Shown here: positions 27,334-56,499 of the stretch, one piece after another
How the letters are laid out: each line of letters starts with the position of its first letter
Numbering within the stretch: the first letter of the stretch is position 1
Source of the DNA: Actinomycetota bacterium
GTDB taxonomy: Bacteria; Actinomycetota; Thermoleophilia; RBG-16-64-13
Direction of reading: 5' to 3'
Length of the DNA: 64,000 bases
NCBI GenBank assembly: GCA_036795215.1
Contig: DAIRFC010000004.1
Location: 4,822 to 68,821, forward strand
Program-made: the position numbers and the translations under genes
The notes under the pieces: generated by a model
Seen by the model: the letters and a program-made list of their open reading frames with translations, nothing else
Told to the model about the DNA's origin: nothing
Database searches by the model: none

Positions 27334-27351
27334 GGCCGTTGGTCCCGTCGT

Positions 27352-39879: not shown

Positions 39880-39912
39880 GATCCGTTATCCGGCCGGCCC
39901 GGCACGGACCTC

Positions 39913-39941: not shown

Positions 39942-39948
39942 AGTAATC

Positions 39949-40332: not shown

Positions 40333-40362
40333 AGAATCACCCATCGAGAGGAAGAAGACAGG

Positions 40363-40638: not shown

Positions 40639-40655
40639 GCGGCGGAGTACTCCAC

Positions 40656-43873: not shown

Positions 43874-45696
43874 GCGGGCGAAGGATCGGTGTCTACGTGT
43901 GCGGCTGCGGCGGCAACATATCCGACTACGTCTCCATTGACGACGTGGTGACGGCCGTCAAAGACGAGCCCGACGTGGTCGTGGCCCGCACCGCCATGTT
44001 CACCTGCTCCGACACGACTCAACAAGAGATCATCCAGGACATCGAGGAGCAACAGCTCGACGGCATAGTGGTCGCTTCGTGCTCGCCGAAGCTGCATACC
44101 TTCACTTTCCGCGAGATGTCAAAACGCGCCGGACTGAATCCTTACGAGTACACGCAGGTGAACATCCGCGAGCAGTGCTCGTGGACCCACACCGACGACA
44201 CGGCGGGCGCCACCGAGAAGGCCGCCCGTTTGGTCCGGGCCGGCATAGCACGCACCCGGCTCACAGAGCCTCTGGAGCCCATCGTCGTGGAGACGGTGCC
44301 CAAAGCGGTGGTCATCGGGGGCGGCATCGCCGGTCTGCGGGCGGCACTGGGGTTGGCCGAGATAGGTATCGCAGTGTTCGTGGTGGAGAAAGAGCCCGAG
44401 CTGGGCGGCTGGGTGGGCGGATTCGGCGAGATGTATCCCCATGGCAAGAACGGCCGCGAGTTAGTGGCCGGGCTTGTGGACCAGGTCCGGGGGCGCTCTG
44501 ACATCACCATCTTCACGGATTCAGAGGTGGTCGGCAAGTCGGGGAGCTTCGGCAACTACGAGGTCGCCATCAGGGTGAACGGTGCTTCTGCCGAGACCCT
44601 CACCGTGCAGGCCGGCTCCATCGTCGTTGCGACGGGATTCGACTCATATGCGCCCGAGCCCGGCGAGTTCGGCTACGGCCTCGAGGGCGTGGTGACGCTG
44701 CCTGAGTTCAAACGTCTGCTGGACGCATCCGAAGGACCTCTGGAATACGCCGGCAGGCCGGTCAGGAGCATTGTGTACATATACTGCGTGGGGAGCCGGC
44801 AGTCCGAGGGCAACGAGTATTGCTCGCGGTACTGCTGCACCGCGGCGGTCCACGCGTCACTGCAGGCGACCGGGCTGGCGACCGGCGTGCAGTCGGCCGG
44901 TGCACCGGGCGCCGGTTCACGTGGCGCCGCCGAACACGGCGCTGCTCCCATACGCCAGTACCACCTCTACCGCGACATGCGCTCCTATGGCAAATATGAG
45001 CTCCTCTACAACGAGTCGCGGCAGAAGGGCGCCATGTATCTGCGCTTCCCCGACGACGAGCCTCCGGTGGTCACCCCGGCGGACGGCACGGCCACTGTCG
45101 CGGAGCAGGAGACCGGATACCGTCTGACGGTCACATCGAAGGATCTGCTCACGGGCGGAGCCGAACTGGCCATCCCCGCCGACCTGGTTGTGCTGGTCAC
45201 CGGTATGGTGCCGCGCGAGAACGGCGATCTGATCGGGACTCTCAAGCTGCCTGTGGGCAACGATGGTTTCTTCAACGAGATCCATCCCAAGTTACGGCCC
45301 GTCGAAACCGTGGTGGACGGCGTGTTCATCTGCGGCGCCTGCCAGAGCCCCAAGAATTCAGCGGAGGCGGTCGCGTCCGGTCTGGCGGCCGTCACGCAGA
45401 GTGCCGCCATCCTCAAGCGTGGATACGCCGAGCTCGACCCGCTCATCGCCGTGGTCGACACCGATGCGTGCGAGTGGTGCGGGCTGTGTTTAGAGGCCTG
45501 TCCGTACGGCGCTCCCCGGGATGCCGAGGAGGACGGCAAGGGGGTGGCCGTCATCGACCGGGCGGCCTGCAAAGGCTGCGGTGGCTGCGTCCCGGTCTGC
45601 CCCAAGAACGCCATAGATCTGCTTGGCTATACCGACGCGCAGATGCGGGCCATGATCGACGGTCTACTCCAGGAGCTGACACCATGCCAGACGTGA
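43870..45696 (+). CDS. hdrA: HdrA/QmoB-like heterodisulfide-reductase subunit A homologue
   Basis: N-terminal Cys-rich domain (IGVYVCGCGGNISDY..). FAD domain VVIGGGIAGLRAAL. C-terminal two 4Fe-4S motifs (CEWCGLCLEACP, CKGCGGCVPVCP). ATGA overlap with the upstream gene. Confidence 0.75.
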   Translation: MSGRRIGVYVCGCGGNISDYVSIDDVVTAVKDEPDVVVARTAMFTCSDTTQQEIIQDIEEQQLDGIVVASCSPKLHTFTFREMSKRAGLNPYEYTQVNIREQCSWTHTDDTAGATEKAARLVRAGIARTRLTEPLEPIVVETVPKAVVIGGGIAGLRAALGLAEIGIAVFVVEKEPELGGWVGGFGEMYPHGKNGRELVAGLVDQVRGRSDITIFTDSEVVGKSGSFGNYEVAIRVNGASAETLTVQAGSIVVATGFDSYAPEPGEFGYGLEGVVTLPEFKRLLDASEGPLEYAGRPVRSIVYIYCVGSRQSEGNEYCSRYCCTAAVHASLQATGLATGVQSAGAPGAGSRGAAEHGAAPIRQYHLYRDMRSYGKYELLYNESRQKGAMYLRFPDDEPPVVTPADGTATVAEQETGYRLTVTSKDLLTGGAELAIPADLVVLVTGMVPRENGDLIGTLKLPVGNDGFFNEIHPKLRPVETVVDGVFICGACQSPKNSAEAVASGLAAVTQSAAILKRGYAELDPLIAVVDTDACEWCGLCLEACPYGAPRDAEEDGKGVAVIDRAACKGCGGCVPVCPKNAIDLLGYTDAQMRAMIDGLLQELTPCQT

Positions 45697-45968
45697 GCCA
45701 GGCCGCCGGCCGGGCCGCGGAGCGTCCCGCCGGCCGGGACCTACGGGAAGTCATCCGCGATGAACATCTCATGCGCCGCCGCATCCTGGAAGTGCTTGGA
45801 GAGGGGCCCCTGACCATCCCCGAGATCGCCGAAGCCCTGGAGAGGCCTTCGCATGAGGTCCTCCTGTGGGTCATGGGAATGCGCAAATACGGTCACGTCG
45901 CCGAGATCAAAGAAGCCACCGACGAGGGCTTCTACCAGTACCAGGCCGTGAAGAGGGAGGAGGCATGA
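45684..45968 (+). CDS. small winged-helix-like protein (hyp between hdrA and hdrC)
   Basis: 94 aa. ..RRRILEVLGEGPLTIPEIAEALERPSHEVLLWVMGMRKYGHV.. resembles a wHTH. Overlaps both neighbours. GGAG RBS. Confidence 0.5.
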   Translation: MPDVSQAAGRAAERPAGRDLREVIRDEHLMRRRILEVLGEGPLTIPEIAEALERPSHEVLLWVMGMRKYGHVAEIKEATDEGFYQYQAVKREEA

Positions 45969-46288
45969 ACGCTCCAGCAGACGGCGTCATCCTCGTCAGG
46001 CCGGGACTTGCGGCCGAGGTGGGGACGCACGACGAGTTCGATGCCTCTGCCTGCATGAACTGTGGAGTCTGCACCGCCGTGTGCCCCATGGGTATCGAGA
46101 TATTGCCTCGCAGGCTGTTCCGCTATGTGCTCTTGGGCATGGAGGAGCAGGTGTTCGACGAGACCGAGAGCATCTACTCGTGCCTCCTCTGCAAGATGTG
46201 TGAGGTCAACTGCCCCGTGGGCGTGCATATCGCCGAGAACGTGCGGGCGCTGCGCCATCACATCAATCGCAAGGTCTTCGGGCTTTAG
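45965..46288 (+). CDS. hdrC: HdrC-like 4Fe-4S subunit
   Basis: Two ferredoxin-type motifs (CMNCGVCTAVCP, CLLCKMCEVNCP) in about 107 aa. ATGA overlap with the upstream gene. Confidence 0.7.
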   Translation: MNAPADGVILVRPGLAAEVGTHDEFDASACMNCGVCTAVCPMGIEILPRRLFRYVLLGMEEQVFDETESIYSCLLCKMCEVNCPVGVHIAENVRALRHHINRKVFGL

Positions 46289-46298
46289 GAGACAGGCC

Positions 46299-47309
46299 AT
46301 GTCTTTACCAACAGGCGACGTCATCGGCATCCTGGCGGACAATCTCCGTCTGCGTAGGTCGGTGTTGCCTATATCGGGCCGCAATGCCACTCGCTGGGCC
46401 CGCGGGCTCGATCTGAAGAGCGGTGGCGAGACCGTCCTCTACACGGGCATGATGTACCAGCTCATCCCCTATATCGAAGGCCTCGTGAACGCCGTGTCGA
46501 GGTTAGGCGACTCGCCCCTGGCCCGATTCACCCCTCTTGGCCGCAGGATCAACCGGCTGGTGAACATCAGTGCCTTCATGGTCCGGCCGCCTGCCCGAGT
46601 GAAGGCGGAATACGATCAGGTCCCCAGGGATGTGGCCCGGCTGCTGCAACAGGCCGGCGTGGAGTTCGGCTATCTCTACAAAGACGATCTGTACTCGGGG
46701 GCGCTCGCCTACGATCTGGGCGCCGATGAGGTCGTGACCGAGCATGCGCGCAGAGTCCATGAGGTGCTCAAGAGACGCGGCGTCAAGACGCTCATCACCA
46801 TAGACCCACATACCACCAACATGATGCGCTCGGTGTATCCCAGACTGATCCCCGAATACGACATCCAGGTTAAAAGCTATCTGGAAGTCCTTGTCGAGAG
46901 GGGATTCGGGGCCGCGGACGGGGCCGCGGGGCAGGCGGTCACCGCGGGGCAGGCGGTCGCGACTGGCAAGAAGCTCGCAGGCGAGGTCGTCATCCACGAC
47001 CCGTGCGTCTTCGCCCGTTACGAGGGCATCTTGGACGAACCACGAGTGCTTCTTGCCGCTACCGGGCTGATGGTCAGAGAGCCGGAAAAGTCAGGCAAGA
47101 TGACCTGGTGTTGCGGCGGACCGGTCGAAGCGCTCTACCCCGAGAAGGCCCGAGCCAACGCCGAGAAACGGGCGGGGCAGCTCACAAACGTGTGCAGCGA
47201 CGTGGTCACCATGTGTCCCATGTGTTTCGTCAACCTGAGCACGGCCGCTCCTGAGGGCGTCGCCTTTCACGATATCTCCCACTACTTGGCCCGCGCGTTC
47301 GTATCCTGA
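46299..47309 (+). CDS. hdrB: HdrB/HdrD-like CCG-domain subunit
   Basis: Two cysteine-rich CCG domains, including KMTWCCGGP and C-terminal CPMCFVN. GGAGA RBS. Confidence 0.7.
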   Translation: MSLPTGDVIGILADNLRLRRSVLPISGRNATRWARGLDLKSGGETVLYTGMMYQLIPYIEGLVNAVSRLGDSPLARFTPLGRRINRLVNISAFMVRPPARVKAEYDQVPRDVARLLQQAGVEFGYLYKDDLYSGALAYDLGADEVVTEHARRVHEVLKRRGVKTLITIDPHTTNMMRSVYPRLIPEYDIQVKSYLEVLVERGFGAADGAAGQAVTAGQAVATGKKLAGEVVIHDPCVFARYEGILDEPRVLLAATGLMVREPEKSGKMTWCCGGPVEALYPEKARANAEKRAGQLTNVCSDVVTMCPMCFVNLSTAAPEGVAFHDISHYLARAFVS

Positions 47310-47334
47310 TCCGCGTTTTCAGAGGAGAAGCAGA

Positions 47335-47814
47335 GTGGACACCACCAAGAAGACCATCATCGTATTCAGCGGCGATCTGGACAAAGCCATGGCTGCTTTC
47401 ATCATCGCCAACGGCTCGGCGGCGATGGGCGACCAGGTCACTATGTTCTTCACCTTCTGGGGGCTCAGCGTGATCCGGAAGCCCAGCAAGGTCAAGACCG
47501 CGGGCAAGACCTTTCTACAGACCATGTTCGGCAAGATGATGCCTCGCGGTACGGCAAGGCTGGGTCTCTCCAAGATGAACTTCGCCGGCATGGGCGCTCC
47601 CCTCATGAAGAAGGCCATGAAGGCCAAGAATGTCATGACTTTGGATGAGCTCATAGCCAGCGCGCGTGAGGAAGGGGTGAGGCTCGTGGCATGCACCATG
47701 TCCATGGACGTGCTCGGTTTCACCAAAGAAGAGCTACTGGACGACATCGAGTACGGGGGCGTCGGCTCCTACCTAGGCCACGCCGACGAGGCGAACGTCA
47801 ACCTCTTCATCTAG
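47335..47814 (+). CDS. dsrE: DsrE/DsrF (YchN-like) family sulfur-relay protein
   Basis: DsrE-fold pattern (IIVFSGDLDKAMAAFIIANGSAAMG..VTMFFTFWGL..VACTMSMDV). GTG start with AGGAG RBS. Last gene of the operon. Confidence 0.7.
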   Translation: MDTTKKTIIVFSGDLDKAMAAFIIANGSAAMGDQVTMFFTFWGLSVIRKPSKVKTAGKTFLQTMFGKMMPRGTARLGLSKMNFAGMGAPLMKKAMKAKNVMTLDELIASAREEGVRLVACTMSMDVLGFTKEELLDDIEYGGVGSYLGHADEANVNLFI

Positions 47815-48326
47815 GGGTTGTCGGCTCGCGCTTTCGCGGCGGCTTTCGCGGCGTGGTCGGCCAACCTCTGCATGGCCGAGGCTCTGGCCGCGAGAGATGC
47901 GGCCGCCATTTCCAGCGCCTCGATACCCGCCTGCGTGATCACGTAGACCCGTCGGCTGGGACCCGCCTCGGGGGTCTGCCATGTGGAGCTGACCAATCCC
48001 TGCTCTTCGAGTTCGCGGAGCAGACGATACATGCTCCCCGGGTCGATGCACACCAGGTCTGAGGCAAGCCCGCCTATCTGCTCGACCAGGTCATACCCAT
48101 GGGTCGTCGTCTCTGCCAGCGAGGCCAGTATGGAGGTCTCGAGCACGGCGCGCCGGTAACGGCCTCCACCGGCGCCACCACCCGGTCCGCCGCCCGCAGC
48201 GCGTCTCGTGCCCCCGAAGAAGCCCGGACCTGTGTCTGGACCTGTGCCGGCTCCCCCGGCCTGTCCCGCTGCCGCTCCGGCGCCTCTTCGGCCTCTGCCC
48301 TGGGGATTCCCGCTGCTCTTACCCAT
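47811..48326 (-). CDS. PadR-family transcriptional regulator with Gly/Arg-rich N-terminal extension
   Basis: PadR wHTH (..ILASLAETTTHGYDLVEQIG..MYRLLRELEEQGLV..RVYVITQAG). About 60-aa G/R-rich low-complexity N-terminus. Its stop shares the CTAG tetranucleotide with the dsrE stop. Confidence 0.7.
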   Translation of the reverse strand: MGKSSGNPQGRGRRGAGAAAGQAGGAGTGPDTGPGFFGGTRRAAGGGPGGGAGGGRYRRAVLETSILASLAETTTHGYDLVEQIGGLASDLVCIDPGSMYRLLRELEEQGLVSSTWQTPEAGPSRRVYVITQAGIEALEMAAASLAARASAMQRLADHAAKAAAKARADNP

Positions 48327-48714
48327 GGTCGCTCTCGACCTCGTCTCTCGTCACTCGCCCCAGCATGAAGTCATCGATCGCCTTGTGGAGGGCGGTCGCG
48401 GCGTGATTGGAGCAGTGCTGTTTTGGCTCAGGCAGACCACCGAGAGCGACCATGATGTCAATGTCGTCGAGCATAGAGGCCTCCTCCATCGTCATGCCGG
48501 TCGCCAGCTCGCTCATCATGCTGCAGGTGGCGATGGCAGCCGGGCAGCCGAACACCTTGTACTTCACCTCCGCCAGCAGATCGCCTTCAACTCGGATCCA
48601 GACCTTGAAGTAGTCTCCGCATTCGGGGTCGCCCACTGTTCCCACGCCGTCGGGGTTCTCGATCTCCCCGACGTTGCGTGGGTTCAGGAAGTGCTCGACG
48701 CTCAGTGGTCGCAC
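48319..48714 (-). CDS. IscU/NifU-N-like Fe-S cluster scaffold protein
   Basis: ..HFLNPRNVGEIENPDGVGTVGDPECGDYFKV..GCPAAIATCSMMSEL.. is the ISCU signature with its three Cys. Start uncertain (GTG 48714 proposed). Confidence 0.65.
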   Translation of the reverse strand: MRPLSVEHFLNPRNVGEIENPDGVGTVGDPECGDYFKVWIRVEGDLLAEVKYKVFGCPAAIATCSMMSELATGMTMEEASMLDDIDIMVALGGLPEPKQHCSNHAATALHKAIDDFMLGRVTRDEVESDHG

Positions 48715-49985
48715 ACGTTGTCCCCGGTCACAAGCGTCCCACTCAGGTACTGCCGCACCACCGCCTCGGGCTCTGCCGAGGGAGCTCCGATGATGACGCT
48801 GACTCCTTGTTCTGTGAACAACTGCTGAGCCCGTGAACCCATGCCACCGGCGATGATGAAACCGGCTCCCTTGTCGGCCAACCATGCGGGCAGCAGACCG
48901 GGCTCGTGTTCCGGGGCCGGGATGGTGGTCTTGTTCAGGATCTGCTTCGACTGTGGGTCGACGTCCACAAGCGTGAATTCTTGGCAGTGGCCGAAGTGGG
49001 CGCACAGGACGCCGTCACTCGTGGGCACGGCGAACCGCTGCACGGCGTCGATGTCCGCGGCCGGAGACGCTCCTGCGGCCGCCGCTGCGGAGCAAGACGC
49101 CGTCGCTGCGGGGCAGGATGCCGCTCCGGGGCAGGATGCCGCCACCGCGTCGTCGGCGGGCTCGTCCTCGAGTGCGAGGATGAACGGCAAGGCCTTCGCG
49201 AACTCCTGAGCCGCCGGGCTCTTGGAGTAGTGGTATATGTACGGACGGCCGGAGTCACCCGCTTCAACGATCGCGGGGTCGAGGGGGACGCTGGCCAACA
49301 GCGGCACTCCGGCCTTGGCTGCCATATCGGCGCCGCCGCCCTTGCTGAAGACGTTCGTCACCTCACCGCACTTCGGGCAGACGAACCCGGCCATGTTCTC
49401 GATCACGCCCAGCACCCTGAGGTCCAGAAGGGAACAGAAACTGATGGACCGTCGGACATTGTTGAGGGCCGTCTGCTGCGGGGTGGTCACGATGATCGCG
49501 CCGGCCATCTTGCCGATGGCCTGGCAGACCGCCAGTGGCTCGTCGCCCGTGCCGGGCGGCGAGTCGATGATCAGGTAGTCGAGTTCGCCCCATTCGACCT
49601 CGCCCAGGAACTGCTCGATAGCGACCGCCTTCATAGGGCCGCGCCACACGACGGCGGCGTCCTCTTCGCCGAGCAGAAAGGCGATGGACATCACCTTGAG
49701 GTTCTCGCCCACTTCCACGGGATGAAGCGTCTCTCCTTCGATCGTGACGGGCGAGCCGTTCAGGCCGAGCAGTTGGGGGACCGTGGGCCCGTGTAGATCG
49801 ACATCGAGAAGACCCACGCGCTTGCCCTCGAGGGCAAGCGAGGTGGCCAGATTGACCGAGACGGTGCTCTTGCCAACACCGCCCTTGCCCGATAGGACTA
49901 TGATCTTATGCTTGATCTGGCTCATCTTCTCCCGCACCGCGGGCGCCCGATCGTTGCCTTGCTGTGATTGGTGCGCGCAATCCAT
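48702..49985 (-). CDS. Mrp/NBP35 (ApbC) P-loop ATPase fused to C-terminal NifX/NifB-like cofactor-binding domain
   Basis: Deviant Walker A SGKGGVGKST and CPxC-like CPKC motif of Mrp/NBP35. Ala/Ser/Cys-rich linker. C-terminal domain ..VLCAHFGHCQEFTLVDVD..GFIIAGGMGSRAQQLF.. of the dinitrogenase FeMo-cofactor-binding (NifX/NafY) family. Start chosen at ATG 49985 (AGAGG RBS); alternatives are GTG 50030 and ATG 49925. Confidence 0.75.
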   Translation of the reverse strand: MDCAHQSQQGNDRAPAVREKMSQIKHKIIVLSGKGGVGKSTVSVNLATSLALEGKRVGLLDVDLHGPTVPQLLGLNGSPVTIEGETLHPVEVGENLKVMSIAFLLGEEDAAVVWRGPMKAVAIEQFLGEVEWGELDYLIIDSPPGTGDEPLAVCQAIGKMAGAIIVTTPQQTALNNVRRSISFCSLLDLRVLGVIENMAGFVCPKCGEVTNVFSKGGGADMAAKAGVPLLASVPLDPAIVEAGDSGRPYIYHYSKSPAAQEFAKALPFILALEDEPADDAVAASCPGAASCPAATASCSAAAAAGASPAADIDAVQRFAVPTSDGVLCAHFGHCQEFTLVDVDPQSKQILNKTTIPAPEHEPGLLPAWLADKGAGFIIAGGMGSRAQQLFTEQGVSVIIGAPSAEPEAVVRQYLSGTLVTGDNVCDH

Positions 49986-50237
49986 GCTTATGCCTCTGCT
50001 TTCTTTAACATCTCGTCGAGTCTTTGCCACATGTCTCGTATCTGATCGGCGGCCTGACTGCCGCCGTACTCCACAGGAGCTCGTGTGCGGCGCACAGGTA
50101 CAGAGCCACCCGGGCCGTCAACGAGCGCGAGGTCGAGCCCCGATCACGGGGGCCAGAGCCGAAGCCTCGTTCCTCATCGGAGTGACGAGTTTACCCGAGT
50201 TCTCGCTGCCGATGTACACGCCTCGCACCTACGACCC

Positions 50238-50480
50238 TCATAGTCCCTCGAGCTCTCTGATTCGCTGCTCGATAGTCTCCAGCACCGACTTCAACCGTTC
50301 GGATTCGCTCTTGAGAAGGGCGACCTCCTCGTCGGGTCCAAGGATGTTGTCGGGTCCCGGCGGTTCATGTGTGGCCGGTGCCCCTTCGGCGACGCAGATA
50401 CGGTCACAGCAGCCGTAGCCGCCCCCCGTCTTGCACCCACACTTGGCACCGAGTGGGCCGGTCACATCTCCTTTGGGCAT
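50238..50480 (-). CDS. DUF5320 family protein
   Basis: MPKGDVTGPLG..CGC..GGGYGCC N-terminus and a C-terminal coiled coil (LKSESERLKSVLETIEQRIRELEGL), as in DUF5320. ATG 50480 with GGAG RBS. Confidence 0.7.
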   Translation of the reverse strand: MPKGDVTGPLGAKCGCKTGGGYGCCDRICVAEGAPATHEPPGPDNILGPDEEVALLKSESERLKSVLETIEQRIRELEGL

Positions 50481-50540
50481 CTTGAGTCTCCTTGATACAC
50501 GCCGGTGCGTCGACGGCCGGCACCGCATATGAGCCACGGT

Positions 50541-50900
50541 CTACCAGTGGCCGTCCACGTCGGCGGCCGGGGCCTGCTCGAGACTTCCCGCCTCGAATCG
50601 GTCGATCGCTTCCGCAACGGTTCCCGCCGGGGCCAGATAGACTTCGACGCCGGCGGCGTTGAGCGCCCTGAAGGCCTTCGGGCCGCAGTGCCCGGTAAGA
50701 AGCACGGTGGCTTCGTTGTCGATGACTCTCTGGGCTGCCTGGATCCCCGCACCCTGTTCGGCGTTCATGCCGGCCAGGTTGTCAACAGGGAGTACGGTCC
50801 GCTCCGGGAGGTCCACCACGAGCAGGTAGTGCGCCCGCCCGAAGCGCTGATCCACAGCGCTCGAAAGATCAGGGCCTGCCGATGTCACGGCTATTCTCAC
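50541..50900 (-). CDS. NifX/NifB-like dinitrogenase FeMo-cofactor-binding family protein (stand-alone)
   Basis: MRIAV.S.G..L.S.VD.RFGRA.Y.L.VD.. and ..VLLTGHCGPKAFRAL..AGVEVY.. pattern. GTG start with AGAGGAG RBS. Confidence 0.7.
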   Translation of the reverse strand: MRIAVTSAGPDLSSAVDQRFGRAHYLLVVDLPERTVLPVDNLAGMNAEQGAGIQAAQRVIDNEATVLLTGHCGPKAFRALNAAGVEVYLAPAGTVAEAIDRFEAGSLEQAPAADVDGHW

Positions 50901-50917
50901 GTCGTTCTCCTCTCTTC

Positions 50918-51481
50918 TCAGGGTGCACGGTAACGGCCGCGCGTCCCACTTCGATCACTCCGTCCACGGCCGCCGCCCGCGCCACCGCCGCCTCCGCACC
51001 CCGGACCCTGGCCGCCTCGCGGGCCTTGTCCCTTCCCTTGGCCTCTTCCTCCTCCACGACCTTGTCCAGCTCCGCGACCTGGACCTCTACCAAGGCCGGA
51101 TGCCGCAGAGCCGTCGCGGCTATCGGTCGGCGGCGTATCAGGTGCGAAGCTTCGTTTGACGTCAAGGGCGAATCCCACCAGACTCAGGAGCCCTGAAAAG
51201 AATCTCTGGGCGGGTGTGATAGAGCTCTGGGCGGGCGCGACAAGGGGAGGTGCAACGTCGGGGATGATGGCCGGCAGTCCGGCCTTCTCCGTGCGAACGG
51301 GAAGCTCGTCAGGCTCCATGATGATAGCGCTCGTGAGACACGCATCCACGCATCGTCCACACGAGGTACAGAGGTTTTCGTCGATGAAGGCGGTGTCACC
51401 GCGCATGGTGATCGCCTCGCGGTTGCAGCTGTCTATGCAGACCCCGCAGCCTGTACAGAGGTTCTCGTCGACGTACACCAT
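50918..51481 (-). CDS. 2x[4Fe-4S] ferredoxin with about 60-aa Gly/Arg-rich C-terminal tail
   Basis: CTGCGVCIDSCNREA and CTSCGRCVDACLTSA motifs. Tail GRGPGRGAGQGRGGGRGQGKGQGPRGGQGPGCGGGGGAGGGRGRS. ATG 51481 with GAGG RBS. Confidence 0.7.
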   Translation of the reverse strand: MVYVDENLCTGCGVCIDSCNREAITMRGDTAFIDENLCTSCGRCVDACLTSAIIMEPDELPVRTEKAGLPAIIPDVAPPLVAPAQSSITPAQRFFSGLLSLVGFALDVKRSFAPDTPPTDSRDGSAASGLGRGPGRGAGQGRGGGRGQGKGQGPRGGQGPGCGGGGGAGGGRGRSDRSGTRGRYRAP

Positions 51482-51540
51482 GTCAGCCTCACATCTATAT
51501 GCAGTTAGCATCTATATGAAAACATCATCAGTTCCCAACG

Positions 51541-52512
51541 TCAAGGGGCCGGCTTATCCGTGGAGCCGGTAGGCGCATAGAAAGTGCGGCCTGCCAGCGT
51601 CTCCGGGCTGATCTGCTTCTCCGCGAGGAGGATGTCCAGGCGCTTCAAGACATCCAGCACGTGCAGGCCAAGCCCGGCCGCGATATCGTCGGCCGTGCAC
51701 GGACGCCTGGCCAGTAGGGCAAGGATGCCGGCATCGTCGGTCGCTCCGGCGGCGTGGTGTTCCGACCTGCTCTTGGTGAAGTCGCAGATGACCTCGACAT
51801 CACGCGAGAACAGGCCTGCGAGGGCGTGCATGCGCTCTTCCGGCAATGCGTGCACGAAGCCCTCGACCGGAGGGCGGCTGGCCGTGTTCAGCTGGACCCG
51901 GGTCGGAGCGATCTGCTCAACCAGCTGCGCGATTTTCTCGACCTGCGAGGGCGTGTCGGTCAAACCTGCCAACAGCATGACTTCCAGCCACACTTGCCCG
52001 TCGAAGCGCCCGGTGAAGGCGGCGAGCCCGTCGACCATGAGATCGAAGGAGATCGACGGGTCGGGACGGTTGACCTGCTCGAACATCTCCGCGTCACCAG
52101 CGTCGAGCGACGGGAGTACCAAGTCTGCCTCCGAGAGCTCTTCCTGTACTTCTTCCATCCACAACAGCGAACCGTTGGTGATCATCGCCACAGGAATGTC
52201 GGTCATCCCTTTGATGAGCCGGATGAGCCGGCCGATCCCGGAATGCAGCGTGGGCTCGCCCGACCCGGCAAGGCTTATGTAGTCGGGAGTGTCTCCCGCC
52301 GCCAGATGGCGCGCGATCCCGGCCTGCACCGCGTCGACAGGGACGTATTCGCGTCGCTCGGTCGTCTTGTTGGTCGTACGCCCAAGCTGGCAGTAGACGC
52401 AATCGTAGGTGCACGTCTTATAGGGTACGAGGTCTACGCCCAGTGACCGGCCCAGCCGCCTTGACGGGACCGGTCCGTAGATGTAGTCGTCGACGTGTTG
52501 TGTCGTGCTCAC
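51541..52512 (-). CDS. radical SAM protein (subfamily not assignable)
   Basis: CxxxCxxC motif CTYDCVYC preceded by YGPVPSRRLGRSLGVDL. GTG 52512 (GGGAGAGG RBS) overlaps the TAG stop of the upstream CoADR gene by 1 nt. Confidence 0.7.
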   Translation of the reverse strand: MSTTQHVDDYIYGPVPSRRLGRSLGVDLVPYKTCTYDCVYCQLGRTTNKTTERREYVPVDAVQAGIARHLAAGDTPDYISLAGSGEPTLHSGIGRLIRLIKGMTDIPVAMITNGSLLWMEEVQEELSEADLVLPSLDAGDAEMFEQVNRPDPSISFDLMVDGLAAFTGRFDGQVWLEVMLLAGLTDTPSQVEKIAQLVEQIAPTRVQLNTASRPPVEGFVHALPEERMHALAGLFSRDVEVICDFTKSRSEHHAAGATDDAGILALLARRPCTADDIAAGLGLHVLDVLKRLDILLAEKQISPETLAGRTFYAPTGSTDKPAP

Positions 52513-54209
52513 TACCTCTCCCGGGAGTACGGCCAGGCCATGATGCCACCCTCCATGACCCGCACGTTCTTCCAACCATTCGCCTCGAGAACCAGCGCGG
52601 CTTCGTAACCTCGCAGGGAGATCTTGCAGAAGCAGATGATCTCGGCGTCTTTGTCCTCGGGTAGTTCGTGCAGGCGTTTACGCAATGCACCAAGCGGTAT
52701 CAGCGTCTCGCCGATACCCAACCGCATGGCCTCGAACTCGTCGGGATTGCGTACGTCAAGAAGGAAAACGGGCGCCTTCGAATCGATCTTGCTCTTGACC
52801 TCGACCGATGAGATGCCCTTGAGCCGGCCTTTCAACTTGTTTTGCATCAGGTGGGCCGTAGCGATGAAGTGGTCTATGGCCAGCGAGAACGGTGGCGCGT
52901 ACGGTAGGTCGGAGTTGACGAGGTCTTCGACCGTGAGCCCGCCCTGGATAGCCATGGCCCACTGCGCGATCTGTTTAGATACCGCGCCTGGGCCGACACA
53001 CTGGGCGCCCAATACACGTCCGGTGGAGCGGTCGGCGATCATCTTGGTGACCAACAGCTTGCCTTCCATGAAGCCCGGTTTGTCAGGGCTTGCGTTGATC
53101 ACGGTCATGATGTCATCAAAGCCGTTGGCGCGGGCTGTGCGCTCGGAAAGCCCCGTGGTGCCCGCGGCGTAGTCGAATATCTTGCAGATGCCGGTGCCGA
53201 TACTCCCTGGGAAGGTCACGGTGTTGCCGAGCACGGCGTTCTCGCCGGCCACGCGTCCCTCGAGATTCGCCAAGTCTCCGTAGGGGGCGTGCACCTGCTT
53301 GCCGGTGATCAGGTTCTTGATCTCCACGCAGTCGCCGGCCGCGTAGATACTGGGGTCAGACGTCTGCATGTACTCGTTGACGACGATGCCCCCGGTAGCG
53401 CCGATGTCCAGGCCCGTTTCGCGCGCCAGCTTGCTGTTCGGCTTCACGCCGATGGCGATCACAGCGAGCTCGCAAGGGAGCTCGGTCCCGTTGGCCAGCT
53501 TGACTCCCACCAGCTTGCCGTTCTCACCCAGGAAAGCCGCCAGGCCGTTGTCGGTGAAGACGTTGATCGACTGGCCCAAGTGCATCTCGATGAGCTTGGC
53601 CATCTCCCAGTCGAGAAAGGTGAGCAGCTGAGGCAGGAGCTCGACCACGGACATCTCGATACCGGCCAGATGCAGCGCCTCGCATGTCTCGATGCCGATA
53701 AGACCGCCGCCGATGACCACCGCCTTCGTGATGGTCTTGTCGTCGCGTATCTTGCGCAGATAATCGGCATCGCGGATGGTCTGAAGAGTCGTGATGCCCT
53801 CAAGGTCGCTTCCAGGCACCGGTGGGATGTTGGGGAGCGCGCCGGTCGCCAAGACCAGCGAGTCATACGGAACCTCGTCGGTCGCGCCGGTTCTGAGATC
53901 GCGGCAGAGCACGGTCTTCTTCGTCCGGTCGATGGAGAGCGCCTCGGTCTCGGTACGTGCCACGACGTTCTTGGCGTTCATATAGTAGATGGGGTCGCGG
54001 ACAACTCCGGTCGCGCTACAGAGCAGCGCATTGCGGTCGTCGAAGAAACCGCCCACATAGTAGGGGTAACCGCACGAAGCCATCGAGAGCTCAGGGATCT
54101 TCTGTATGAGAGTGATCTCCGCGTTCTCGTCGATGCGCCTGGCTTTCGCGGCGGCCTTGGGGCCGGCCGCAGAACCGCCGATGACTACTATCTTCTTTCG
54201 GTCGCTCAT
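52512..54209 (-). CDS. CoA-disulfide reductase / NAD(P)H-dependent persulfide reductase-like flavoprotein with C-terminal rhodanese domain
   Basis: FAD motif IVVIGGSAAGPKAA. CoADR-type active Cys (SMASCGYPYYVGG). Second NAD(P)H Rossmann. C-terminal rhodanese with catalytic loop CFCKISLRG. ATG 54209 with AAGGA RBS. Confidence 0.8.
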   Translation of the reverse strand: MSDRKKIVVIGGSAAGPKAAAKARRIDENAEITLIQKIPELSMASCGYPYYVGGFFDDRNALLCSATGVVRDPIYYMNAKNVVARTETEALSIDRTKKTVLCRDLRTGATDEVPYDSLVLATGALPNIPPVPGSDLEGITTLQTIRDADYLRKIRDDKTITKAVVIGGGLIGIETCEALHLAGIEMSVVELLPQLLTFLDWEMAKLIEMHLGQSINVFTDNGLAAFLGENGKLVGVKLANGTELPCELAVIAIGVKPNSKLARETGLDIGATGGIVVNEYMQTSDPSIYAAGDCVEIKNLITGKQVHAPYGDLANLEGRVAGENAVLGNTVTFPGSIGTGICKIFDYAAGTTGLSERTARANGFDDIMTVINASPDKPGFMEGKLLVTKMIADRSTGRVLGAQCVGPGAVSKQIAQWAMAIQGGLTVEDLVNSDLPYAPPFSLAIDHFIATAHLMQNKLKGRLKGISSVEVKSKIDSKAPVFLLDVRNPDEFEAMRLGIGETLIPLGALRKRLHELPEDKDAEIICFCKISLRGYEAALVLEANGWKNVRVMEGGIMAWPYSRER

Positions 54210-54323
54210 GTGAGGTCCTTTCGTCATGGAAATTCATTACAGCCGGTACCCCGTTTTGCGCAAATGTACTACTATCTAGATGCAGTTACCAGTTAGATTA
54301 TCTCCGCACCTATGGAGGCTCCT

Positions 54324-55067
54324 ATGATCATCGACGATCTGCGAGACTACCTCGCGTCCGCCTTTGCCGAGCAGCGTCTGGCCGATGTCCGCATAGGCCT
54401 GGGCTACACGGCCGTGATGCTTGAAGACGGCAACGTGGGTGTCGCCTATACGGCAAGAGAGAACGCCTCTCCCGGGTGCTCGGTCTTCATGGGGCGGCGG
54501 CCCCTGGTCGGCAGGAGCACCACGGAGATCCTGGAATACCTGGGGTCTGACGACGGAGTGGAGCGTACTGTGGGCTTGGCTGTCGGCAACGCGCTCGCGA
54601 ACAGGCCGGGAGCGGGGCAGCAGGCGGGGGATATCCTCGAGACCCTCTCCGTTGGTTTTCTCGACCGGGTGGGCATGGTCGGCTTCTTCGGTCCTCTCGT
54701 GTCTCCTATCGAGAAACGCGCCCGCGAACTGGTCATCTTCGAGCGCACCATGACCCGCTCAGAACGCGTACTACCGGCGGAGAAGGCTCTCGAAGAGCTG
54801 CCCCGGTGTGACGTTGCGGTGATCACCTCCACGGCGTTCATCTTCGGCGGCATGGATGGTCTGCTCGAGGCGGCCTCGTCGTGTCGGGATGTGGCGCTGG
54901 TCGGAGCTTCGACCCCGCTCGTGCCCGATTTCTTTGCGCCGCTGGGAGTCAAGCTCCTCTCCGGCATCACCGTCACCGATCCGTCCAGCATCCTGCAGAT
55001 CGTGAGCGAGGGCGGCGGGATGGGGTTCTTTGGGCGGCACATAAAGAAGGTGAACATGCGGCTCTGA
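54324..55067 (+). CDS. DUF4213/DUF364 (putative heavy-metal chelation, Rossmann-like) domain protein
   Basis: Typical DUF4213 N-terminus (..VRIGLGYTAVMLEDGNVGVAYT..) and DUF364 C-terminus (..DVAVITSTAFIFGGMDGLLE..). Start moved to ATG 54324 (GGAGG 5 nt upstream). Confidence 0.65.
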   Translation: MIIDDLRDYLASAFAEQRLADVRIGLGYTAVMLEDGNVGVAYTARENASPGCSVFMGRRPLVGRSTTEILEYLGSDDGVERTVGLAVGNALANRPGAGQQAGDILETLSVGFLDRVGMVGFFGPLVSPIEKRARELVIFERTMTRSERVLPAEKALEELPRCDVAVITSTAFIFGGMDGLLEAASSCRDVALVGASTPLVPDFFAPLGVKLLSGITVTDPSSILQIVSEGGGMGFFGRHIKKVNMRL

Positions 55068-55201
55068 GACGTCCCAGTTGGGATACAGAATGCCCTGAAG
55101 AACTTGACTGGCGGCGGCGCCTCGTGATACATCTATATATCTAGATGAAGCGGGCCTGTCTAGGTTATCGATTCCAGGGCTACGTATCTACAAGGAGCAC
55201 G

Positions 55202-56446
55202 ATGGTCTCATCGTCGGGGGGTCTGGCCGAGGAGCGTCGCAAGCGGTTCGATGACGCCATCCGTCTTGACGTACCCGATAGAGTGCCGCTTGAGATCAAC
55301 TTCGGCTACTTTCCAGCCAAGTACTGTGGCATCAGTTACTCGGCGTCCTATTACGACTACGACGCATGGCTGTCGGCGTGCAAGAAGACCGTGCTCGACT
55401 ATGGCGCTGATATCAGCAGCGTGCAGCAGTTCTTCCCCGGGGTCATCCTGGAACAGATCGATCCTCACGTCATAAGATGGCCGGGCCGGGGCGGTTCGCC
55501 CATTCAGTCTCACCAGATAATCGACGGCGAGTACATGCTCGAAACCGAGTATCCCCACCTCATCGCCGACCCTACCGACTTCGTGTTCCGGCGTTACATG
55601 CCACGCATGTCTGGGGCCATGAAGGCGTTCGCCTCGGCTCCACCTCTGCCCGCCGCGGAGATGGGCCATCGTACCGTTCTTGGCTTGGCCGAAATACTGA
55701 CCGCTCCTGAGTTGGCGCCCACCATCGAGAAGCTTCAGAGCATCGGACGGGAGTATCGCGAATGGAGTCCCAAGCTGGCTGCCTTCAACCAGGAGATCGA
55801 AGATCTGGGCTTTCCTCCCCTGGCCGACCGTCTGACGTTGGCTCCCTACGATGTGATAGCGGACAACCTCCGGGGTATGCGGGGCACCATGATGGATCTG
55901 TACAGACGCCCCGACGAACTGGCCGACGCGTGCAGGACTGTTCTGAAGGTCGTGCTCGATCGCATCGGCGGGCCGGTCGAGGGCGGAGTGAACAGGGTGG
56001 CCATCCCGTTGCACTTCGGCTCGGAGGGCTTCTGTTCTCGCGAGCAGTTTGAGACTGTCTACTGGCCTACCCTTAGAGATCTGATCCTGGGGCTCATCGA
56101 TAAGGGCCTCACACCTCTTGTCATGACAGAAGGCGATTACACCTCCCGGCTCGAGTATTTGCTGGAGATACCGAAAGGGAAGGCCTTCGTGCACTTCGAC
56201 AGCACCGACATGTTCAGGGCCAAGGATGTCCTTGGCGGGCACCTGTGCATCAGTGGGAACGTACCGGTGTCGATCCTTCTCGGAGGGACGCCCGACGAGG
56301 TGAGAGAGGTGGCCAAGAAGCTCATCGATCACTGCGGTCGCGACGGTGGGTTCGTCATGTCTACGCGCACCCCGGTGGACGACGCGCGGCCCGACAACCT
56401 GAAGGCGTTGATAGACTTTACTGTAGAGTATGGCGCATATGCCTGA
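55202..56446 (+). CDS. uroporphyrinogen-decarboxylase (URO-D)-like / MtaA-CmuA-type methyltransferase family protein
   Basis: TIM-barrel URO-D family pattern over about 415 aa. ATG 55202 with AAGGAG RBS. Confidence 0.6.
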   Translation: MVSSSGGLAEERRKRFDDAIRLDVPDRVPLEINFGYFPAKYCGISYSASYYDYDAWLSACKKTVLDYGADISSVQQFFPGVILEQIDPHVIRWPGRGGSPIQSHQIIDGEYMLETEYPHLIADPTDFVFRRYMPRMSGAMKAFASAPPLPAAEMGHRTVLGLAEILTAPELAPTIEKLQSIGREYREWSPKLAAFNQEIEDLGFPPLADRLTLAPYDVIADNLRGMRGTMMDLYRRPDELADACRTVLKVVLDRIGGPVEGGVNRVAIPLHFGSEGFCSREQFETVYWPTLRDLILGLIDKGLTPLVMTEGDYTSRLEYLLEIPKGKAFVHFDSTDMFRAKDVLGGHLCISGNVPVSILLGGTPDEVREVAKKLIDHCGRDGGFVMSTRTPVDDARPDNLKALIDFTVEYGAYA

Positions 56447-56499
56447 CGGACTGCTACAGTGCGGCTGAACTCTGGCCCCGCGGCTTTGGGAGACGCGAG

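Follow-up and report, generated by a model that had tools for sequence, protein, structure and literature searches.

A probable Actinomycetota version of the orange protein (ORP) cluster carrying an added CoA-persulfide reductase and radical SAM gene pair

Results and discussion

The eight genes on the minus strand between positions 47811 and 54209 of the window (the whole 64,000-nucleotide stretch of DNA analyzed here) would constitute the Actinomycetota version of the orange protein (ORP) cluster, a system for the binding, assembly, and transfer of Fe-S or other metal-sulfide clusters in strict anaerobes; we place the probability of this reading at about 55%. Homology ties the locus to the Desulfovibrio ORP system through its ORP homolog and through MrpORP, a two-domain Fe-S carrier. 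These come with a dicluster ferredoxin and with two frequent partners in ORP clusters, a DUF5320 protein and a U-type scaffold (IscU) that is complete. It departs from the Desulfovibrio prototype in that the MinD-like ferredoxin ATPases Orp3 and Orp4 have been deleted, leaving an orp4 relic, in that a PadR-family regulator takes the place of the sigma54 activator OrpR, and in that it gained, upstream of where the ancestral operon began, two translationally coupled genes, one for a CoA-persulfide/polysulfide reductase and one for a radical SAM (rSAM) enzyme with a single cluster. Judged from sequence, the locus is a variant of that known system and no new pathway made for the neighboring Hdr genes. 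The first-pass annotation had described a NifB-less cofactor-assembly set; homology bears out its reading of the parts list as a metal-sulfur cluster handling set, whereas the orphan status it implied is lost to the matches with NF041136 and 2WFB described below. Moreover, nif genes are not needed to account for the NifX-like domains, because these belong to the ORP and MrpORP families, which occur in non-diazotrophic anaerobes (PMC6345978).

All eight minus-strand reading frames were recovered with the domain content originally claimed for them (ORF check and Pfam), and most of the reported junctions were found too. The GTG start of the rSAM gene and the TAG stop of the CoADR-rhodanese gene share one base (TAGTG), the stand-alone NifX-like gene starts 17 nt past the ferredoxin stop, the IscU-type gene overlaps the 3' end of the Mrp gene by 13 nt, and the padR stop overlaps, as CTAG at 47811-47814, that of the plus-strand DsrE2 gene on the Hdr side. 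The padR gene, which had been placed 7 nt after the IscU-type gene, actually overlaps the stop of the latter with its ATG by 8 nt (ATGGGTAA). Between the DUF5320 and Mrp genes, 252 nt (49986-50237) are non-coding. Since six independent metagenome contigs carry this same layout, the arrangement is no assembly artefact.

The Mrp-NifX fusion (48702-49985, minus strand) scores 508 bits against NCBIfam NF041136, above the curated cut-off of 450, and is thereby assigned to MrpORP of the Orp9 type, that is, an Mrp/NBP35 Fe-S carrier ATPase joined to a Nitro_FeMo-Co (Di-Nase) domain. Alignment A2 shows no variation in the motifs GKGGVGKS, CPKC, HFGHC, P-H-PG-LP-WL, and C-terminal CDH, and those of the window protein agree with the ones described for the family (PMC6345978). 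The stand-alone NifX-like protein (50541-50900, minus strand) consists of a single PF02579 domain (75 bits) and has as its best PDB match the ORP of D. gigas (2WFB, E 2.7e-21), by which it is identified as an ORP/Orp8 homolog. The product of 48319-48714 (minus strand) matches Pfam NifU_N at 112 bits and has 7C8M and 4EB5 as best PDB matches, with which its CGD, FGC, and HCS ligand motifs align; it is a U-type Fe-S scaffold of the IscU or clostridial-archaeal NifU type.

The ferredoxin gene (50918-51481, minus strand), identified by the Pfam Fer4 families, encodes a 2x[4Fe-4S] domain that shares about 40% identity with the ferredoxin inserted in Orp3-like ATPases. The domain is accompanied by a helix that is conserved (LSGLLSxxxFALDxxR) and by a cationic, Gly/Arg-rich tail of 67 residues, among them 30 Gly and 12 Arg (pI 12). 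Both helix and tail keep their character in the related actinobacterial loci L008, L090, L173, and L174. The DUF5320-like protein (50238-50480, minus strand) falls just below the Pfam gathering score (26.4 bits against 27), and the assignment is backed by the homologs P0122-P0124, which carry PF17253, and by the NCBI name of an identical protein. Its N-terminus (MPxGDxTGP) is retained, as is the coiled coil at the C-terminus; the central region, rich in Gly, Arg, and aromatic residues, is shortened and Cys-rich, with an internal deletion of about 34 residues in an in-frame alignment.

A comparison with the actinobacterial relatives points to Fd-ORP-(DUF5320)-Orp3-Orp4-MrpORP-IscU-PadR as the ancestral order, found both alone and joined to the CoADR-RHD/rSAM pair, and intact orp3 and orp4 genes stand in these relatives where the window has only a relic. 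Searching with Orp4 of L008 and L090 (tblastn) located this relic at 49988-50213 (minus strand): IGSENSGKLVTPMRNEASALAPVIGA matches Orp4 residues 163-188 and VEYGGSQAADQIRDMWQRLDEMLKKAEA, followed by a stop, the C-terminus, in different frames and with E values between 1e-5 and 3e-7. The MrpORP ATG follows 2 nt after the end of the relic, just as it follows intact orp4 in L090. By these matches, the 252-nt stretch is a degraded orp4 gene, encoding a MinD-like ATPase with a ferredoxin insert, frame-shifted and with large deletions, and the lineage of the window deleted orp3, of which no trace is left between the DUF5320 and MrpORP genes of the window, and most of orp4. The shortening of the DUF5320 protein and the loss of orp3/orp4 may mean that part of the locus is decaying. 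A stronger version, in which the whole ORP part is non-functional after losing its core partners and only CoADR-RHD and perhaps the rSAM enzyme still matter, is favored by the same losses and by the fact that Orp3/4 are elsewhere the most constant neighbors of MrpORP (16/19 loci). This version is quite improbable, however, for the remaining genes are all intact with their catalytic and ligand motifs, the start-stop overlaps are kept, and six independent metagenome samples share one identical architecture.

The first gene (52512-54209, minus strand) encodes a fusion of a CoA-disulfide-reductase-like enzyme with a rhodanese (CoADR-RHD), with the Pfam domains Pyr_redox_2, Pyr_redox_dim, and Rhodanese. 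Its best PDB matches are 6PFZ (462 bits), 3NTA, 3ICR, and 8A56, with which its redox Cys (SMASC) aligns, as does the rhodanese Cys (FCKISLR), and it scores under the equivalog cut-off for plain CoA-disulfide reductase. Domains, structural matches, and aligned cysteines agree with the earlier assignment to a persulfide-reductase type, here specified as that of the NADH-dependent persulfide/polysulfide reductases (Npsr) or CoA-persulfide reductases (CoAPR). CoADR-RHD is present at only a minority of ORP loci. The rSAM gene (51541-52512, minus strand) encodes a protein with a single CxxxCxxC cluster motif and a C-terminal ArsR/SmtB-like winged helix; as already proposed, it is not NifB, and its sequence places it in an uncharacterized, strongly and widely conserved family, which in many phyla sits within ORP operons between the Orp3 and Orp4 genes.

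The neighborhoods of this family were counted at 39 loci from many phyla, each flanked on either side by 5 kb or more. A NifX protein with a G/R tail lies near the rSAM gene at 30 of the 39, ORP at 29, OrpR at 27, Orp3/4 at 26, DUF5320 at 24, MrpORP at 20, IscU at 18, and CoADR-RHD at 6. When MrpORP is used as the seed, the well-flanked loci contain Orp3/4 (16/19), ORP (14/19), and rSAM (5/19). Taken together, both sets of counts indicate that rSAM, IscU, and CoADR-RHD are accessory modules. An enrichment of CoADR-RHD is seen near ORP loci that bear the rSAM gene, at 12 of 87 compared with 2 of 73 (Fisher p about 0.02, the samples not being independent).

In an alternative reading, the locus is a sulfane-sulfur/sulfide stress regulon with no specific biosynthetic product, in which CoADR-RHD detoxifies persulfides and, in a sulfide-rich and very reducing environment, IscU, MrpORP, ORP, and ferredoxin rebuild Fe-S clusters or protect them. 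CoADR-RHD stands first in the gene order and matches the Npsr/CoAPR enzymes, and no other protein of the set is as conserved across phyla (71-86% identity). Also, expression of the orp genes in Desulfovibrio is restricted to a very low redox potential of about -425 mV (PMC8359166), and IssA of Pyrococcus is induced by elemental sulfur, with sufBD up alongside and the cysteine desulfurase genes down (PMC5524996). Nonetheless, most ORP clusters are without CoADR-RHD, the locus has a PadR protein as its regulator and lacks a persulfide sensor of the CstR or BigR type, and the rSAM enzyme is left unexplained, which makes a stress regulon unlikely.

That regulator (47811-48326, minus strand; Pfam PadR, 63.9 bits) carries a Gly/Arg-rich N-terminal extension and belongs to a narrow subfamily (149 hits, core identity 65-84%) that closes the ORP operons of L008, L090, L173, and L174. 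It is a candidate repressor, and we infer that it would bind the palindrome CATnTAGATr, of which the window holds four copies, all intergenic, against 0.21 expected: one upstream of CoADR-RHD, two upstream of the ferredoxin gene, and one upstream of a neighboring transporter operon, in positions that are kept in relatives. The first lies in a 32-nt promoter/operator element (CTAACTGGTAACTGCATCTAGATAGTAGTACA, core CATCTAGATA; 54265-54296, minus strand) between the divergent DUF364 and CoADR-RHD genes, which occurs once in the window and is nearly invariant in three lineages despite diverged flanking intergenic DNA. The next two are copies of CATATAGATG, 7 nt apart (51492-51518, minus strand), in the 59-nt spacer between the rSAM and ferredoxin genes, directly upstream of the ferredoxin Shine-Dalgarno sequence. 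This motif has a matching place in L007, L008, and L090, and in L173 and L174, whose operons open with the ferredoxin gene, it precedes that gene too. The segment is a candidate operator/promoter inside the cluster, at the counterpart of the ancestral operon start. Because these palindromes match that of the first gene and the spacer is the operon start in relatives, two co-regulated transcription units are suggested rather than one simple operon; of the single eight-gene operon proposed before, the gene set and order hold, whereas transcription as a single unit is doubtful.

The fourth site, CATCTATATATCTAGATG (55130-55147, plus strand), precedes a URO-D-like gene and an Opp/Nik-type ABC transporter operon. 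The divergent gene (54312-55067, plus strand; DUF4213/DUF364, "putative heavy-metal chelation" in Pfam) occupies the same position in L007, L008, L090, L173, and L174. That this gene shares its operator region with the cluster, and that an importer operon of metal or peptide type bears the motif too, would fit a function in buffering, storing, or delivering thiometallates (Mo, W, or Cu sulfide) for molybdo- or tungsto-enzymes, with ORP as a Mo-Cu-S carrier and anionic thiometallates bound by the G/R tails. D. gigas ORP, of which the stand-alone protein is a homolog, belongs to a family that binds a non-covalent S2MoS2CuS2MoS2 cluster (PMC6345978), and molybdopterin oxidoreductases follow the cluster in L087, a single locus. 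However, the ORP Mo-Cu cluster may form adventitiously, no Mo/W cofactor biosynthesis or transport genes are found in the window, and MrpORP, IscU, and ferredoxin indicate Fe-S chemistry; a thiometallate function is decidedly unlikely.

The first-pass annotation had favored a dedicated, sulfane-sulfur-fed maturation or repair of unusual (non-cubane) Fe-S clusters in the adjacent Hdr-like complex. In line with this, an Hdr-like, DsrE2, or TusA module is convergent to padR in three of five actinobacterial lineages (window, L008, and L173), DsrE or TusA genes lie near ORP genes in L173 and a few distant loci as well, and sulfur trafficking is a theme common to TusA, DsrE2, and rhodanese. Conservation and operator motif nevertheless give the Hdr target no support and render it very improbable: an HdrA homolog within 10 kb is found at 1 of 39 rSAM-seeded and 0 of 19 well-flanked MrpORP-seeded loci, the same flanking genes enclose no such module in the close relative L090, L174 lacks the module too, its make-up varies (L008 has HdrB directly, L173 no HdrBC), the CATnTAGATr motif was not found upstream of the Hdr operon, and ORP clusters are widespread without Hdr neighbors. 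A clade-specific, actinobacterial link with Hdr is possible because of the convergent module in those three lineages, Hdr neighbors being all but absent outside some actinobacterial relatives.

Finally, for the ORP-type reading a flow of clusters can be proposed. CoADR-RHD would use NAD(P)H to convert sulfane sulfur (CoA-SSH, polysulfide) to sulfide via a rhodanese-bound persulfide, and this sulfur would be assembled with iron on IscU, no cysteine desulfurase being encoded nearby; a motif search, a weak test, gave no IscS/SufS active-site motif in the window or in about 170 loci. We know of no citable experimental precedent for sulfur transfer from CoADR-rhodanese to IscU. IscU would then hand the cluster to the CXXC site of MrpORP, which would deliver it to the locus's own proteins, namely the ferredoxin, the rSAM enzyme, and ORP. 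MrpORP binds a bridging [4Fe-4S] cluster and transfers it in vitro to Orp3/Orp4 and aconitase (PMC6345978). This flow is conjectural here, because the known acceptors of MrpORP, Orp3 and Orp4 (PMC6345978), are missing at the locus; Orp3/Orp4, OrpR, IscS, or nif genes may still be encoded beyond the window. The Desulfovibrio ORP system has been proposed to act in cell division or septum positioning. Also, the Gly/Arg-rich cationic tails of the ferredoxin and PadR may hold or sense anionic metal-sulfide species, by analogy with the IssA tail of Pyrococcus, a precedent for such tails (PMC5524996), and the G/R-rich DUF5320 and NifX-tail proteins of the relatives could have the same metal-sulfide role.

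Identity of the cluster as an ORP system

The eight open reading frames located on the minus strand between 54209 and 47811 are intact and have the domain content described in the first-pass annotation. Read in their own direction, they encode a CoA-disulfide/persulfide reductase fused to rhodanese (CoADR-RHD, 52512-54209), a radical SAM enzyme (51541-52512), a dicluster ferredoxin (50918-51481) with a 67-residue tail containing 30 Gly and 12 Arg (pI 12), a Nitro_FeMo-Co protein homologous to the orange protein, ORP (50541-50900), a DUF5320-like protein (50238-50480), a fusion of Mrp and Nitro_FeMo-Co domains, MrpORP (48702-49985), an IscU-type scaffold (48319-48714) and, as the last gene, a PadR regulator (47811-48326). 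Most of the gene junctions reported at first are also present, with the radical SAM GTG sharing one base with the preceding CoADR TAG, the NifX-like ORP gene beginning 17 nt past the ferredoxin stop, the IscU gene overlapping the 3' end of the Mrp fusion by 13 nt, and padR meeting the plus-strand DsrE2 gene in overlapping CTAG stops. PadR itself, however, does not start 7 nt after the IscU gene as stated there, its ATG overlapping the IscU stop (ATGGGTAA), and a gap of 252 nt between the DUF5320 and Mrp genes is absent from that annotation. Exactly the same gene order is found in six metagenome contigs from different samples. The species of the window has no entry among the genome representatives searched, the nearest being an Actinomycetota MAG and a Gaiellales MAG, with 66-68% identity in the radical SAM enzyme.

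The Mrp fusion scores 508.4 bits against the NCBIfam model of the iron-sulfur cluster carrier protein MrpORP (NF041136, cut-off 450). It has the motif set described for this protein (Walker A, CXXC, CxHFGHC[E/Q], a proline-rich segment and a C-terminal CDH; PMC6345978) as a deviant Walker A GKGGVGKS, CPKC, CAHFGHCQ, the proline-rich PAPEHEPGLLP (PAPEHEPGLLPAWL) and a terminal VCDH, all of them invariant across ten fused homologs (alignment A2). Identity to sampled homologs of other phyla, mostly delta-proteobacterial MAGs, is ~50-55%. For the stand-alone NifX-like protein, of 119 residues, without a tail and with a pI of 4.7, the best solved relative is the orange protein of Desulfovibrio gigas (2WFB, E 2.7e-21, residues 2-110). 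The presence of both an ORP homolog and MrpORP identifies what had been read as an unplaced, NifB-less metallocofactor-assembly set as the ORP system; the absence of NifB holds, no NifB hit being obtained, and the cluster is a variant of this already known gene system.

The CoADR-rhodanese aligns end to end with NoxA-3 of A. fulgidus (6PFZ), the NADH-dependent persulfide reductase Npsr of Shewanella (3NTA), CoADR-RHD of B. anthracis (3ICR) and a CoA-persulfide reductase (8A56), with Pfam domains that match the fusion architecture and with both the redox and the rhodanese Cys kept in the alignment to 6PFZ. NAD(P)H-dependent reduction of persulfide or polysulfide is predicted from these homologs. 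It differs from them in genomic context, its gene heading an ORP-type cluster and being translationally coupled to that of the radical SAM enzyme. A canonical CoA-disulfide reductase (TIGR03385) was discarded, the score of 350 bits being under the equivalog cut-off of 578.8. The IscU-like protein (Pfam NifU_N, 112 bits, below the NCBIfam equivalog cut-offs) has the three ligand Cys and the His in CGD, GC and HC motifs when aligned to 7C8M and 4EB5, so that all ligand motifs of the archaeal and clostridial U-type scaffolds are present. The DUF5320-like protein reaches 26.4 bits against PF17253, just under the gathering score of 27; homologs at 34-63% identity carry the domain, and NCBI names as DUF5320 an identical protein deposited from an Actinobacteria MAG. 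The idea that its Cys-rich middle is an out-of-frame Gly/Arg region was rejected because the in-frame alignment to the homolog P0122 fits better. PadR matches PF03551 with 63.9 bits (gathering score 27) and PDB 2ESH at E 5.6e-11. No NCBIfam equivalog was found for the radical SAM enzyme, the ferredoxin, DUF5320 or the divergent DUF364 protein.

Two further features were observed in these proteins. The inter-domain linker of MrpORP (~49085-49135, minus strand) has three extra Cys in SCP/SCP/SC repeats (AASCPGAASCPAATASCS), absent from the closest homologs, in the actinobacterial loci L007 and L008. Also, between the ferredoxin domain and the Gly/Arg tail (50918-51200, minus strand) a helix LSGLLSxxxFALDxxR is kept in all five actinobacterial lineages, including L008, L090, L173 and L174; it may be amphipathic and serve for targeting or interaction.

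The best described relative is the ORP system of Desulfovibrio vulgaris Hildenborough, which consists of Orp3, 4, 5, 7, 8 and 9 and the sigma54 activator OrpR, and for which a role in cell division has been proposed. It is characterized by a physical complex of its proteins and by a Mo-Cu-S cluster bound to ORP. Its MrpORP passes [4Fe-4S] clusters in vitro to Orp3 and Orp4, MinD-like ATPases with a 2x[4Fe-4S] ferredoxin insert (PMC6345978), and the orp genes are expressed only near -425 mV (PMC8359166). The window resembles it in encoding an ORP (Orp8) homolog together with the two-domain MrpORP (Orp9). However, the locus lies on one strand instead of in two divergent operons, the acceptors Orp3 and Orp4 are absent from it, and it adds radical SAM, IscU, CoADR-rhodanese, DUF5320 and the Gly/Arg-tailed ferredoxin, none of which is among the described orp3-5, orp7-9 and orpR products.

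A radical SAM family embedded in ORP operons

Profile searches placed the radical SAM enzyme in no curated family, its best NCBIfam scores (viperin, MoaA, PFL-AE, TYW1) being at most 37 bits and far under the cut-offs; the NifB-, lipoyl-synthase- and Tyw1-like placements considered in the first-pass annotation are therefore not reached. The family itself is large and strongly conserved, with ~8000 homologs and 57-70% identity across Thermodesulfobacteriota, Acidobacteriota, Planctomycetota, Verrucomicrobiota, Actinomycetota and others. Only C34, C38 and C41 of the SAM cluster are invariant Cys, C272 in the C-terminal winged helix being near-invariant. Auxiliary clusters such as those in NifB, lipoyl synthase and TYW1 are therefore missing.

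The NifB/NifX/NafY pathway of the FeMo-cofactor shares with the cluster a radical SAM gene beside NifX-type carrier domains. However, NifEN, NifH and NifDK are absent from the window, and the enzyme has no NifB family match, no K-cluster ligands and no fused NifX domain; the fold match to NifB is non-specific, PFL-activase ranking above it. Lipoyl synthase and the LipS1-LipS2 pair of sHdr systems were set aside on a LipS2 score of 18.8 bits against a cut-off of 270 and the absence of auxiliary Cys. TYW1, suggested by the JGI name COG0731 and expected to show a family-level match, an auxiliary cluster and a tRNA setting of archaea or eukaryotes, was likewise set aside. Searched against PDB sequences, the family profile matched the winged helix alone.

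The core of the enzyme is compact and activase-like. Some members of ~530 residues (P0024, P0029, P0042, P0059, P0062, P0067 and P0094) are fused to a class-I SAM methyltransferase, and P0064 is fused to a Zn_ribbon_8 domain; moreover, in locus L087 a separate Zn_ribbon_8 gene runs into the radical SAM start, and many further loci have such a gene directly upstream. On these grounds one may speculate that the substrate is a protein or a carrier-bound species. Literature searches on COG and Pfam numbers, and on the orange protein jointly with radical SAM enzymes, gave nothing relevant, and the ORP literature examined does not mention the family.

For the gene neighborhoods, the radical SAM family was used as seed for 80 genomic loci, which were searched with the window proteins and the proteins of three annotated distant loci; counts refer to the 39 of them flanked by 5 kb or more on both sides and to 19 loci seeded on MrpORP. 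In most of the 39, the radical SAM gene is within a long one-strand operon, the distant order being OrpR, a NifX domain with Gly/Arg tail and Zn-ribbon, DUF5320, (CGGC), ORP, (TrmO-like), Orp3-like, Zn_ribbon_8, radical SAM, Orp4-like, IscU, MrpORP and a metallo-beta-lactamase-fold protein, sometimes followed by CoADR-RHD. The radical SAM-seeded loci contain the NifX-tail protein in 30 cases, ORP in 29, OrpR in 27, Orp3/4 in 26, DUF5320 in 24, MrpORP in 20, Zn_ribbon_8 in 19, IscU and the metallo-beta-lactamase-fold protein in 18 each, and CoADR-RHD in 6. Around the MrpORP seed (19/19), the corresponding numbers are 8 for the NifX-tail protein, 14 for ORP, 8 for OrpR, 16 for Orp3/4, 9 for DUF5320, 5 for Zn_ribbon_8, 5 for IscU, 10 for the metallo-beta-lactamase-fold protein, 0 for CoADR-RHD and 5 for radical SAM, itself the seed in the first set (39/39). 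These counts indicate that Orp3/4, ORP and Mrp form the core of the cluster, with radical SAM, IscU and CoADR-RHD as accessory modules. CoADR-RHD is more common in loci bearing the radical SAM gene (12/87 versus 2/73, p ~0.02, for samples that are non-independent). The distant relatives have Orp3/Orp4-type ATPase-ferredoxins and an OrpR-type activator, as in D. vulgaris, in one operon with the radical SAM family.

Mrp and the CxHFGHCE-type Di-Nase domain are one fusion in some loci and two adjacent genes in many others (L020, L025, L039, L064, L066, L068, L082 and L085, where a stop codon is followed by an MKIAIP... restart), in agreement with the published view that this fusion arose repeatedly. 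Active-site motifs of cysteine desulfurases were found neither in the window nor in ~170 related loci, a weak test, run without a positive control. Beside the ORP cluster of locus L088, a peroxiredoxin (AhpC)-like reading frame (5149-5859, plus strand) has an in-frame stop (FTFV*ATEV) where the peroxidatic Cys should be and may encode a selenocysteine enzyme.

Loss of Orp3 and Orp4 in the window

In the actinobacterial relatives orp3 and orp4 are intact. L007/L090 and L008 have the order CoADR-RHD, radical SAM, Gly/Arg-tailed ferredoxin, ORP, Orp3, Orp4, MrpORP, IscU and PadR, with DUF364 divergent; L173 and L174, which were retrieved by way of the PadR subfamily, have ferredoxin, ORP, DUF5320, Orp3, Orp4, Mrp and, further on, PadR, without CoADR-RHD and radical SAM; and L172 has NifX, DUF5320, Orp3, Orp4 and MrpORP. 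The place of Orp3 and Orp4 corresponds in the window to the 252-nt gap, where tblastn detects a frame-shifted and internally deleted relic of orp4 (49988-50213, minus strand). Its pieces lie in two reading frames, IGSENSGKLVTPMRNEASALAPVIGA (Orp4 residues 163-188), LALVDGPGG and the C-terminal VEYGGSQAADQIRDMWQRLDEMLKKAEA*, and it ends 2 nt before the MrpORP start, the same as the intact orp4 of L090. No remains of orp3 were found in the gap, and apart from this relic the tblastn hits in the window are at the level of ferredoxin domains, with no intact Orp3 or Orp4. By its sequence, the window cluster is a reduced form of the ORP operon. As a natural variant lacking Orp3 and Orp4, it suggests that the remaining proteins persist without the proposed cell-division-like ATPases, provided that no copies are present elsewhere in the genome.

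The DUF5320 gene beside the gap is ~34 residues shorter than its nearest homologs, although still in frame. An 80-residue reading frame after padR in L090 was considered as a displaced DUF5320 and rejected, being a membrane protein.

Relation to the Hdr-like module

The convergent module on the plus strand (38881-47814) encodes a Fer4_16 protein, ArsR, TusA, an MvhD/FlpD-like protein, a 961-residue GltD/NfnB-like flavoprotein, HdrA, a 94-residue reading frame, HdrC, HdrB and DsrE2. The first-pass annotation proposed that the cluster might serve this Hdr-like complex, using sulfane sulfur, but the wider neighborhoods argue against it. HdrA and DsrE2 each appear in 1 of the 39 radical SAM-seeded loci and in none of the 19 seeded on MrpORP, and the adjacency is essentially absent outside Actinomycetota. 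Moreover, padR in L090 is directly followed by the same flanking genes (an AF_0155-type ferredoxin, a flavin reductase and an MFS protein), the module being an indel of ~9 kb relative to that locus. Dedicated Hdr maturation is therefore unlikely as the general function. On the other hand, a related module converges on padR in L008 and L173, which makes the neighborhood older than the window species, and a clade-specific link between ORP and Hdr is conceivable, in which TusA, DsrE2 and rhodanese would traffic sulfur.

A candidate PadR regulon

Three lineages share a nearly unchanged 32-nt element in the divergent region between the DUF364 and CoADR-RHD genes, although the remaining spacer sequence differs among them. 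The 10-bp palindromic core of this element, CATnTAGATr, has four copies in the 64-kb window against 0.21 expected, four being reached in 0 of 100 shuffles. All four are intergenic and around the cluster: one precedes CoADR-RHD (54273-54282), two are in the 59-nt spacer immediately before the ferredoxin ribosome-binding site (51492-51501 and 51509-51518), and one (55138-55147, in the site 55130-55147) precedes a URO-D-like gene and an ABC transporter of the Opp/Nik type (operon 55145-60407, binding protein 62086-63906). The last one suggests that the regulon extends beyond the eight genes; no copy is found upstream of the Hdr operon. L007, L008 and L090 have the motif at both corresponding positions, and L173 and L174, whose operon opens with the ferredoxin gene, have it upstream of that gene. 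The ferredoxin gene would then be the ancestral operon start, and the CoADR-RHD/radical SAM pair was probably added upstream, bringing its own operator copy.

No OrpR homolog is found in the window, and its PadR belongs to a narrow subfamily tied to ORP operons. Instead of OrpR, the locus has a PadR-family regulator and a palindromic operator, and PadR would be the protein acting at the palindrome. For the sigma54-lacking Actinomycetota this offers a simple candidate regulon. An Rfam scan of 47000-55500, including the 252-nt gap and the 5' region, gave no credible riboswitch or leader, and a consensus promoter and terminator scan gave neither an internal terminator nor a strong sigma70 site.

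The DUF4213/DUF364 gene ("putative heavy-metal chelation"; 54312-55067, plus strand) is divergent from the ORP operons also in L007, L008, L090, L173 and L174. A few further phyla likewise have DUF364 close to ORP genes (8 of 80 loci), and the gene was noted in L088 as well. Between the DUF364 and ferredoxin genes of L173, an uncalled small reading frame (~3590-3790, plus strand; MPGKDGTGP...GG...CVCQTCGYREPH...CPKCG) combines a DUF5320-like N-terminus with a zinc ribbon and resembles the C-terminal half of the distant proteins with NifX domain, Gly/Arg tail and Zn-ribbon.

Proposed role in metal-sulfide metabolism

Persulfide and polysulfide reduction is established for homologs of the Npsr/CoAPR type, as are cluster assembly for U-type scaffolds and metal-sulfide binding for ORP-family proteins. 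Also, cluster binding and transfer are established for MrpORP (PMC6345978), and the cationic tail of IssA from Pyrococcus furiosus binds thioferrate (PMC5524996). CoADR-RHD would then reduce sulfane sulfur, the product and iron would be used on IscU, and the cluster would pass from IscU to MrpORP and to the cluster proteins of the locus itself, with the Gly/Arg tails holding or sensing anionic metal-sulfide species. Such tails recur across lineages on ferredoxin, PadR, DUF5320 and NifX-tail proteins.

IssA is similar in its Nitro_FeMo-Co domain family, in the cationic Gly-rich disordered tails within the gene set and in a sulfur-rich anaerobic context (PMC5524996). However, in the window it is the ferredoxin and PadR that bear the tails, the NifX-like protein having none, and the tails are rich in Gly and Arg with few aromatics; thioferrate storage is a feature of IssA. 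An IssA-type storage protein, which has its own cationic Gly/aromatic-rich C-terminal tail, was rejected for the tailless ORP homolog, and NifX proteins with Gly/Arg tails do occur in distant ORP loci.

A more far-reaching reading, which we hold improbable (roughly 0.15), is that the radical SAM family would be an unrecognized working part of a widespread anaerobe pathway free of cysteine desulfurase, together with CoADR-rhodanese, IscU, MrpORP, ORP and Gly/Arg-tailed proteins. Sulfide or sulfane sulfur would be taken directly, and anionic thioferrate- or thiometallate-like species would be built, stored or remodeled, the radical SAM enzyme acting on a carrier-bound cluster or on a small Cys/Gly-rich partner such as the DUF5320 or Zn_ribbon_8 protein. 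In this pathway the Gly/Arg tails would be polyanion-binding modules and also the sensor of PadR.

The ORP system, common among strict anaerobes, is switched on only when the redox potential is very low, and a strongly conserved radical SAM family in the ORP operons of many phyla gives a handle on its function. Some lineages combine the ORP genes with a persulfide reductase and a U-type scaffold, and the weak motif test detected no cysteine desulfurase in their vicinity; this combination bears on how anaerobes make Fe-S clusters from sulfide. If the locus is merely a variant, the gain is a correct annotation, in which its "NifX-like" genes are uninformative on nitrogen fixation. The most useful novelties would be the radical SAM family within ORP operons, the naturally occurring loss of Orp3 and Orp4, the persulfide reductase link and the candidate regulon of PadR and the palindrome.

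Elsewhere in the window (26227-29127), two SLH-domain proteins, one of them with a NosD-like beta-helix, point to an S-layer-bearing envelope in this Actinomycetota lineage.
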